Assembly: GCA_965202605.1 (NCBI GenBank)
Contig: OZ241838.1
Coordinates: 3,325,008 to 3,389,007 of the forward strand
Direction of reading: 5' to 3'
From: a bacterium
GTDB taxonomy: Bacteria; JAAXHH01
DNA: 64,000 nt
The notes below the pieces were generated by a model that was not told where the DNA came from, made no database searches, and saw only the letters and a list, made by a program, of their open reading frames with translations. Both the position numbers and the translations under genes were made by a program. Positions 18,893 through 19,728 of the stretch are shown here, one piece after another (position 1 is the first letter of the stretch; each line of letters opens with the position of its first letter).

Positions 18893-18908
18893 TGGGATCG
18901 GCCGACTT

Positions 18909-19115
18909 TCAGTGACTGTCGTCGGGATAGACCATGTCGGTCGCCTTGCCGGCCAGGTCGTAGCGATAGAAGACGTCCTTTTCGGGCAGCGTATCGATGG
19001 CTATTGGACAGTCTTCGGGACCTCGGCCGACGCGAACGGAGTCTATCGTCTGCTCACCCCGGCCGCTGAAGAGGGTGAATCGGACCTGGGCATGTGACAC
19101 TCCTTTCAAACACAA
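18909..19115 (-). pseudogene. Rhs/YD-repeat gene remnant
   Basis: ORF ends ...IAIDTLPEKDVFYRYDLAGKATDMVYPDD, matching an internal YD-repeat segment of the downstream Rhs genes (DNA 18915-19000 resembles 21790-21880 and 26215-26300). Homology is only about 90 bp. Confidence 0.55.
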
Positions 19116-19242
19116 GAGATAACATGTCCGCTAAAACGGGTCAACTCCAACTTCACTTCGAACAGCAATTACATATCGAGGACCCATCTTAAAGATCACA
19201 ATCTGTGTCGCGGTCAAGGGTGCGGTACACGTGTTATCTCCT

Positions 19243-19728
19243 TCACAGTGTACAGAACCCTCTTTTTTTGCGCTCGATTTCTACACCTTTCAATTGTCCA
19301 AAAACCTCGTCCATCTTGGGCATTAACAAACTGGTAATGATCATTTCATCTCCAGATCGCAGTAACAAGCGAGCGTAGTAATAACGTTCCACTGTAAAGA
19401 ACGTCATTCCTCCCTTGTCCATGCTTGCAGATTTGTAAACAATGTATTTTTCTATATCATCTATGTTGTATGTCTCTTCCCCCCCGGCTGTGTATCGTAT
19501 GATTTCATTTCGGGTCACTACATATTCTTCCTTGCGATTTTTACGCCAATACTGCAGGTGCAGGTACAGAGTAGGGAGAAAATCCAAAAGGAAAACAATA
19601 CCAAATATAACAATTGCGTCCATTGCAAATTCAAACCAAGCAACGATAGCTATTAACATTACCCAAAACACAAAAGCAGAATAAAGTGGTATGAAATGAT
19701 TTCTTAGATCAATGCCGTACCTTTTCAT
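19243..19728 (-). CDS. Small membrane protein, candidate Rhs-toxin immunity protein (paralog of 23649..24146)
   Basis: 161 aa, two N-terminal hydrophobic helices. Clearly homologous but diverged from the 165-aa protein at 23649..24146. Lies downstream of an Rhs C-terminal domain in a lower-GC patch. Confidence 0.5.
   Translation of the reverse strand: MKRYGIDLRNHFIPLYSAFVFWVMLIAIVAWFEFAMDAIVIFGIVFLLDFLPTLYLHLQYWRKNRKEEYVVTRNEIIRYTAGGEETYNIDDIEKYIVYKSASMDKGGMTFFTVERYYYARLLLRSGDEMIITSLLMPKMDEVFGQLKGVEIERKKRGFCTL

Follow-up and report, generated by a model that had tools for sequence, protein, structure and literature searches.

What is a short piece of Rhs coding sequence doing at the end of an rhs locus, directly behind the stop codon of a convergent acetyltransferase gene? 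The question is raised by a bacterial DNA stretch of 64,000 nucleotides (the window), in which Rhs homology appears immediately after a GNAT gene. A sequence-only reading had described about 90 bp of such homology next to a conserved spacer, and had taken them as the footprint of a deleted third module or as the recombination endpoint that installed the rhs island. The homology is real, and its exact extent is 84 bp, positions 18920-19003. This fragment, or stub, is probably a non-functional remnant of a third, older Rhs core copy that lay at the distal end of the array and was cut down by deletion.

Organization of the rhs locus

Read along the minus strand, the locus consists of the main rhs gene with its toxin tip CT1, the immunity gene imm1, a spacer, an orphan rhs module with the tip CT2, the immunity gene imm2, the imm2 flank and the 84-bp stub, after which comes the GNAT gene. 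The coding features are as follows.

24504..32451 (-), main rhs, in open reading frames 32451..28927, 30071..25086 and 25064..24504
23649..24146 (-), imm1, immunity gene of the main rhs tip, 165 aa, PH_40 family
20084..23383 (-), orphan rhs-CT module 2, a 5'-truncated core with a toxin tip, open reading frame 23332..20084
19243..19728 (-), imm2, presumed immunity gene of the orphan module, 161 aa, PF26566 PH_40

The likely start of the main gene is the Met at 32232, which opens a signal-peptide-like N-terminus. Both the main and the orphan gene contain RHS_repeat, YD repeat (YD_repeat_2x) and Rhs_assc_core domains and are true Rhs genes. A full-length rhs, co-oriented immunity genes and 5'-truncated copies sharing the core are all present, the composition of a C-terminal displacement array. 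The two modules are collinear between 27801/23381 and 23524/19154, an interval that covers core, toxin and immunity gene with an unvarying offset of 4420 bp. They share a core of ~3.3 kb at ~90% identity, or 4.2 kb at 83% when the toxin and immunity regions are included; imm1 and imm2 have ~74% DNA identity. GC content falls from 0.65-0.73 in the cores to 0.38-0.50 across the toxin and immunity regions. A simple tandem duplication of the 4420-bp unit was rejected: the homology of the modules ends at 23524/19154, and the last ~145 bp of each unit are unrelated. The stub does not lie where a third tandem copy of that unit would begin.

The PF26566 PH_40 label of the imm1/imm2 family comes from precomputed annotations only. 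Searches with imm1 and imm2 against Pfam and NCBIfam gave no match, as did searches with the CT1 tip against Pfam and the CT2 tip against NCBIfam, and the exact-sequence look-up of imm2 and of P0001 returned no record. In every retrieved context, members of the PH_40 family are located directly behind rhs toxin tips. The toxin tips of the window (20087-20700 and 24504-25064) are homologous and end in a hydrophobic stretch rich in Gly and Ala (…GYGASTATGYLVASAYGGPYGLLAGAAVGLVFVGGEAAY…), and the PH_40 immunity proteins have, by eye, hydrophobic N-terminal stretches resembling membrane segments. Read from the sequence, the two features suggest a membrane-targeting toxin.

As assembled, the reading frame of the main rhs is interrupted twice. 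One extra G is found in the G-run 30001-30004, relative to the related rhs loci L024 and L023, and a TGG codon is changed to TAG at 25086-25088, just upstream of the toxin domain, where the orphan has TGG. Either the main rhs is a decaying gene or, for the homopolymer indel only, the change is a sequencing or assembly error. With a frameshift and a nonsense codon in its main gene, the island looks decayed overall.

Boundaries of the island

Relatives of the window were collected by a scan for the GNAT protein, which retrieved L001 (a Candidatus Latescibacterota MAG) and L002 from genome collections and L030 from metagenomes. Their GNAT proteins are 91%, 86% and 87% identical in amino acid sequence, respectively, and the position of the stop codon is identical. 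All three are ~90% identical to the window on both flanks and lack window positions 18896-32987. In L001, positions 1-10651 correspond to window 8174-18895 and positions 10843-13504 to window 32988-35686, with 191 bp between them; L030 is likewise collinear, with ~170 bp between the GNAT and PhyH genes. Synteny with the relatives ends at 18893-18895, directly after the GNAT stop codon, and is restored from 32984-32996, which leaves 7-19 bp to the start codon of PhyH (33003). The following features mark the two ends.

18242..18892 (+), GNAT acetyltransferase gene (Pfam Acetyltransf_1, E 6.3e-17), conserved chromosomal flank, convergent with the rhs operon
18893..18919 (no strand), 27 bp between the GNAT stop and the Rhs fragment, holding the left island boundary (junction B)
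32452..32987 (no strand), upstream island end, with a conserved ~75-nt element (32435-32509) and a window-specific low-GC stretch (32514-32987)

Positions 18896-32987 are a 14.1-kb rhs island that replaced the ~170-190-bp GNAT/PhyH intergenic region; it is absent from relatives in which both flanks are conserved. The comparison with three island-free relatives defines the insertion site and bears out the placement of the remnant at the edge of the Rhs island: in L001, L030 and L002, collinearity with the window stops at 18893-18895 and is regained at 32984-32996. Fixing the left boundary of the island is the main use of the fragment. All long open reading frames between the boundaries are rhs and immunity genes. 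There is no tRNA or tmRNA in 17000-34500, and the island has no flanking direct or inverted repeats and no Rfam element. Of the hallmarks of site-specific integration (integrase, as judged by the long open reading frames, tRNA target, flanking repeats), none was found.

These boundaries bring in a second history for the stub, in which the incoming island DNA ended in an rhs core, or in the donor's truncated orphan, and there was never a complete third module in this genome. The stub lies no more than 27 bp from the boundary set by the three relatives. The whole intergenic region was replaced with no target duplication, tRNA or integrase, as in illegitimate or homology-independent integration. 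Homologous rhs arrays are found at other chromosomal sites in L024, L025 and L028, beside AbiEi/AbiEii, which indicates that the array does move. We nevertheless consider this history unlikely, for reasons that lie in the junctions and the substitutions of the stub and are given with them below.

In this uncultured lineage, the sequence between GNAT and PhyH is variable: the site is empty in two relatives and holds a 2.7-kb insert in a third and the rhs island in the window. The insert is that of L002 (10593-13314), an unrelated low-GC sequence with open reading frames of 409 and 297 aa, neither of which belongs to a Pfam family; in the same genome the last ~21 bp of the GNAT gene are duplicated directly after its stop codon. 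In the window, ancestral bases kept after the GNAT stop were considered (CGGCCGACTTTC against CGGCCATTTCC in L001), and the resemblance is too weak to call. A TTGTACAATTGTACAA palindrome is located upstream of the PhyH-family gene in L001 (10760-10790), L030 (~10725-10745) and L002 (~13260-13280). Present in 3/3 relatives and absent from the window, it was removed together with the ancestral intergenic region. The island has left 7-19 conserved bases before the PhyH ATG, and the regulation of PhyH may differ here as a result.

The Rhs fragment

18920..19003 (-), vestigial Rhs core fragment, 84 bp, encoding AIDTLPEKDVFYRYDLAGKATDMVYPD, homologous to main rhs 26299-26216 and orphan rhs 21879-21796

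In blastn searches within the window, the fragment matches the main rhs core at 26216-26299 with 91.7% identity (77/84, E 3.6e-29) and the orphan core at 21796-21879 with 90.5% (76/84, E 4.4e-28); an ungapped three-way comparison gives 81/84 between the main and orphan cores over the same segment. A repeat search independently recovered the three 84-nt copies (fragment, main and orphan; family D9). The local score of the fragment is 133, against a best score of 30 in 300 dinucleotide shuffles, and its alignment with both Rhs cores, which the sequence-only reading had put forward as a check, is significant far above the shuffled background. It is also 85-92% identical to the cores of L023-L029, which have RHS_repeat, YD_repeat_2x and Rhs_assc_core domains. 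In the ungapped comparison with the cores, Rhs homology begins and ends abruptly at both edges of the fragment, and 27 bp separate it from the GNAT stop codon (18890-18892).

Very little coding content is left. The 68-aa open reading frame around the fragment (18909-19115) has no match in Pfam (E up to 0.1) or NCBIfam (E up to 0.01). No complete YD repeat is detectable in the fragment by profile, and it stops 14 residues into the best RHS_repeat match of the orphan (orphan residues 499-535). Core homology ends at ~26216 and is followed by '...DDSH*' and then by the GNAT flank; in intact copies the core-end domain lies ~1 kb further along. The fragment does not run through Rhs_assc_core or a PxxxxDPxGL-type motif into a C-terminal toxin, as an orphan module does. 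The next gene, where a cognate immunity gene would stand, is the convergent GNAT, which is kept in the island-free relatives. Having no start codon, core-end domain, toxin tip or immunity gene, the fragment therefore does nothing, and its appropriate annotation is that of a pseudogene fragment rather than a gene.

Repeated cores are classic assembly hazards. The rhs cores of the window, repeated over ~3.3 kb at ~90% identity, might have been mis-joined, so that the stub and the GNAT gene would not be adjacent in the cell; the homopolymer indel of the main rhs, possibly a sequencing error, points the same way. The stub has substitutions of its own, however, and is therefore not a collapsed version of one of the cores. 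The record of the imm2 protein places it on a single 3.97-Mb contig, and both flanks are collinear with three independent relatives up to the junctions. An assembly artefact is in our view extremely improbable.

Sequence downstream of the immunity genes

The spacer that had been described as conserved behind both immunity genes involves the following non-coding features.

19004..19242 (-), imm2 3' flank, non-coding, collinear with the metagenome contigs L026/L027, 87% overall
19154..19207 (-), 54-bp block in the imm2 flank, the sole part in common with the imm1 spacer (23524-23577)
23413..23600 (-), inter-module spacer element, module-1 version, 81.6% to L023 7050-7219, no conserved ORF

Aligned over the intervals of the sequence-only reading, 19100-19245 and 23420-23650, the two spacers score 58, against a shuffle maximum of 26. 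The similarity lies between 19154-19207 and 23524-23577 (81.5% identity over 54 bp, E 4.4e-9 in blastn). On one side of this block, the score of 19100-19153 against 23420-23523 was matched in 79 of 300 shuffles; on the other, that of 19208-19242 against 23578-23648 was matched in 280 of 300, and both are at the level of chance. The conserved spacer is thus real for 54 bp, not for the ~145-230 bp claimed, the remainder being no better than shuffled sequence. A 45-bp indel separates the two spacers beside the immunity stop codons.

The rest of the imm2 flank was accounted for by other genomes. Positions 19004-19242 have no match elsewhere in the window, in L001 or in L002. Neither a diverged Rhs core nor leftover ancestral intergenic sequence accounts for 19004-19153, as tblastx and blastn against the same three sequences gave nothing. 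L026 and L027 are short metagenome contigs with an imm2-like gene (72% amino-acid identity), collinear with the window from 19729 to 19001 at 83% over 733 bp. By segment, the identity is 80% in the coding part, 87% in the whole flank and 94% in 19154-19242. Positions 19004-19242, including 19004-19153, are the 3' flank of the imm2 cassette.

The spacer of module 1 was found elsewhere as well. Its positions 23600-23429 are 81.6% identical over 174 bp to L023 7050-7219, where the element has a 172-aa immunity gene ahead of it and an orphan core behind it. This immunity gene has no PH_40 label and no detectable DNA similarity to imm1 or imm2, and the toxin tip ahead of it is visibly different. 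The PH_40 junctions in L024, L025 and L028 are without the element. The spacer is therefore no simple marker of a module end, as its module-1 version also stands behind an immunity gene of a different family. The 54-bp block is what the module-1 and module-2 versions of the non-coding junction sequence still share, and is part of the non-coding sequence that travels with immunity cassettes.

Several roles for this sequence were considered and rejected. A pseudogene was ruled out with the 65-aa translation of 23414-23608 (-), which has no true homologue among 1.8 billion representative proteins; it gave just three matches, to repeat proteins via many weak stretches, which are spurious. In L023 the frame runs into a TAG and is displaced by a 2-bp gap, and neither module 2 nor L026 preserves it. 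A structured RNA or terminator was excluded by the absence of an Rfam match to the spacer and flank (E up to 1), by an RNA fold z-score of -0.89 for the imm2 flank, which is not significant, and by the number of terminator-like sites (1 found against 1.0 expected by chance); promoter motifs are not in excess. For an integron attC-like or other cassette recombination site, a conserved inverted repeat or structure would be expected at every cassette junction, and there is none: the inverted repeat 19240-19221 / 19133-19117 in the module-2 fold is missing from module 1 and L023, and in L026 one of its pairs is lost.

Junctions and age of the fragment

At junction A (19003/19004), the imm2 flank is joined to core position 26299, with at most 2-3 bp of possible microhomology. 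From here the window reads on as TAGCCATCGATACG, like the rhs cores, and the alignment with L026/L027 breaks at exactly this point; past the break, L026 has ~190 bp of other sequence and then a full orphan core from main-equivalent position 28139. Junction B, the other end of the fragment, lies at ~18916-18920, 24-27 bp from the GNAT stop, and corresponds to core position ~26216. Since L026/L027 diverge exactly at 19003/19004, the remnant is bounded by two illegitimate junctions. This counts against the stub having been brought in as the end of the incoming DNA, which leaves junction A, where the imm2 flank is broken with respect to L026, unexplained and still requires an earlier truncation in the donor.

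The ancestry of the stub was examined by comparing 18 copies of the 84-bp segment from six loci, an argument confined to these 84 positions. Resident and foreign cores are at about the same distance from the stub, which has 77/84 identities to the main rhs, to L023_4743 and to L024_17433. At the 'DVFY' codons the stub retains GACGTCTTCTA, the state of most copies, which is replaced by ATGGCC or ATAGGC in the resident cores. Three synonymous states (GAT, CTG and TAT) are common to the stub and the resident cores, which again disfavours installation from a donor, as they fit long co-residence. Three changes are present in the stub and in neither resident core (Asp to Glu, Val to Ala and Ala to Asp); all are non-synonymous, the Ala-to-Asp change is also found in one L025 orphan, and the other two are unique. 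By these states, the stub is not a recent copy of either resident core. They fit an old paralogue of the locus's own core that would have drifted under relaxed constraint.

The same substitutions bear on whether the stub is templated filler, a short stretch that template switching, in the course of a deletion or insertion, had copied from an rhs core nearby. Its small size, two sharp edges and the 2-3 bp of possible microhomology, at most, at junction A are what such copying would leave. A patch taken from a resident core should be nearly identical to it, and the stub differs from both at 7-8 of 84 positions, with 'DVFY' codons found in neither. Copying long ago, or from an unseen third core, would be needed, at which point filler collapses into the remnant of a third core; we regard it as very improbable.

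The reading that we prefer takes the stub for a remnant of a third core copy. Arrays of this kind grow when a new rhs tip, together with its immunity gene, enters by pairing a homologous crossover in the conserved core with an illegitimate join, and so displaces the earlier tip downstream. Here the oldest unit would have been trimmed by illegitimate recombination at both of its ends: at junction A, the imm2 cassette flank would have been joined to core position 26299, and at junction B, core position ~26216 would have come to lie within 27 bp of the GNAT stop. The 84-bp leftover needs two breakpoints, and hence two events or one complex event. The layout of the array matches published C-terminal displacement (PMC8125069), which supports the reading of the stub as a remnant of the array. 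A genome with an intact third module at the GNAT/PhyH site was not found among the relatives and contigs examined, and it is by analogy that we infer a complete third module once present here and lost by deletion. The footprint of a deleted third module, as the sequence-only reading had it, is thus the best-supported explanation on account of the two illegitimate junctions, the dissimilarity from a recent copy and the eroding related arrays; the lack of such an intact genome is what stands on the other side. Installation from a donor and the remnant of a resident third core differ only in where the truncation happened.

The core position of junction A recurs elsewhere. An orphan rhs in L024 (14696) and L025 (4510) starts no more than 5 bp from the core position of the stub, 26299 (window 19003), with upstream sequence unrelated to that of the window. 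This may be a coincidence or a preferred breakpoint. With ~14 orphan start points spread over ~3.5 kb, simple arithmetic gives a chance of ~1 in 3 that any pair falls within 10 bp, and of ~6% that such a coincidence involves the stub itself. A recombination hotspot at core ~26300 was rejected, there being two independent junctions only and no significance by this arithmetic.

The non-coding elements behind the immunity genes could in principle be dedicated cassette-junction elements that bias where new modules join, with core ~26295-26304 as a preferred breakpoint and the stub as a minimal 'landing pad'. The candidates are the ~175-bp element common to module 1 and L023, found behind immunity genes of two different families, and the 240-bp flank of imm2 that L026/L027 also have. 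We consider the proposal improbable.

To a functional role of the stub and its flank, whether as an anchor for recombination that switches toxins or contracts the array or as a terminator or RNA element between the convergent operons, we give next to no chance. The stub repeats a segment of both cores in direct orientation, the longest perfect run being 26 bp, and the imm2 flank is at least as conserved as imm2 (87-94% against 80%); the proximity of the L024/L025 orphan start to the stub, within 5 bp in the core, can also be counted in favour. Recombination through the stub, however, yields an rhs truncated after '...YPDDSH*' and devoid of a toxin, so that the stub cannot serve toxin switching. 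The proximity of junctions is not significant by the arithmetic above, the higher conservation of the flank can follow equally from diversifying selection on the immunity gene, and the null results for Rfam, RNA folding, terminators, promoters and conserved ORFs given above speak against an RNA or terminator.

Erosion of related arrays

In related arrays, the 5' ends of orphans are found at many core positions. One orthologous junction between an immunity gene and an orphan (core 26637/8) is followed by three different continuations: a full orphan and two more in L024, a 681-bp core fragment fused to the end of the last orphan in L028, and in L025 (GCA_965242885.1) only a 97-bp core stub (10907-11003) before AbiEi. 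The chromosomal site and the lineage of this series differ from those of the window. The series indicates that the distal ends of arrays erode to stubs of ~100 bp beside the flanking gene. Like the stub of the window, the terminal stub of L025 is a short piece of core after the last PH_40 immunity gene, beside a flanking gene. It differs in its extent (core 26638-26542 against 26299-26216), chromosomal site and flank, and it keeps the original immunity-to-orphan junction, which the stub of the window has lost.

To our knowledge, Rhs orphan-array loci have not been described in this phylum. In C-terminal displacement, paired homologous and illegitimate recombination pushes older tips downstream (PMC8125069). 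The locus has the layout of the orphan rhs-CT/rhsI arrays of Enterobacteriaceae and bee-gut symbionts (PMC3150448, PMC8125069): a full-length rhs, an immunity gene and a co-oriented 5'-truncated rhs with its own tip and immunity gene, with core homology between the copies, illegitimate junctions and lower GC in the toxin and immunity parts. Unlike the orphan modules of those arrays, the stub consists of 84 bp from the middle of the core only, with no toxin or immunity gene. Other differences are that the two toxin tips of the window are homologous (61-92% DNA identity per 100-bp window), not unrelated; that the host belongs to an uncultured Latescibacterota-like lineage; and that its Rhs, as read from the sequence, has a signal-peptide-like N-terminus and no obvious T6SS-type domain.

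Arrays of the contact-dependent-inhibition gene cdiA include fragments without the toxin boundary and immunity gene (PMC3150448); fragmentary cdiA genes with neither the VENN motif nor an immunity gene are known from Klebsiella variicola and Erwinia pyrifoliae (PMC3150448). Like the stub, they are vestigial internal pieces of a delivery gene with no boundary motif and no immunity partner. They derive from CdiA, not Rhs, and have not been described at an island boundary. The fragment is a recombination scar of an ordinary kind, left by a known process in a lineage not described before. Together with the series of L024, L028 and L025, it provides a clean natural example of distal erosion in Rhs orphan arrays, which is a minor addition to the picture of C-terminal displacement.

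A conserved element and a second insertion

The ~75-nt element upstream of the main rhs (TCAGAATAC...GCGGACCCGCACCCCGCGGACC...CTTCTGATCGA; window 32435-32509, minus strand) has no Rfam match. It is also present in L024 (1622-1700 and 19727-19803), L025 (12890-12966) and L028 (9821-9897), and in L024 it brackets the whole array. The element is 87-94% conserved between genomes whose rhs genes are ~82% identical. It recurs downstream of AbiEii, before a 155-aa gene, and is then followed by a GGCACG-gggtttttt-CGTGCC hairpin.

A second window-specific insertion, absent from L001 and L002, occupies 41100-48915. It encodes a C5 cytosine methylase, HATPase_c_3, Z1-domain and DUF4420 (PD-(D/E)XK) proteins and an HNH nuclease, and by this gene content looks like a defence-type island.
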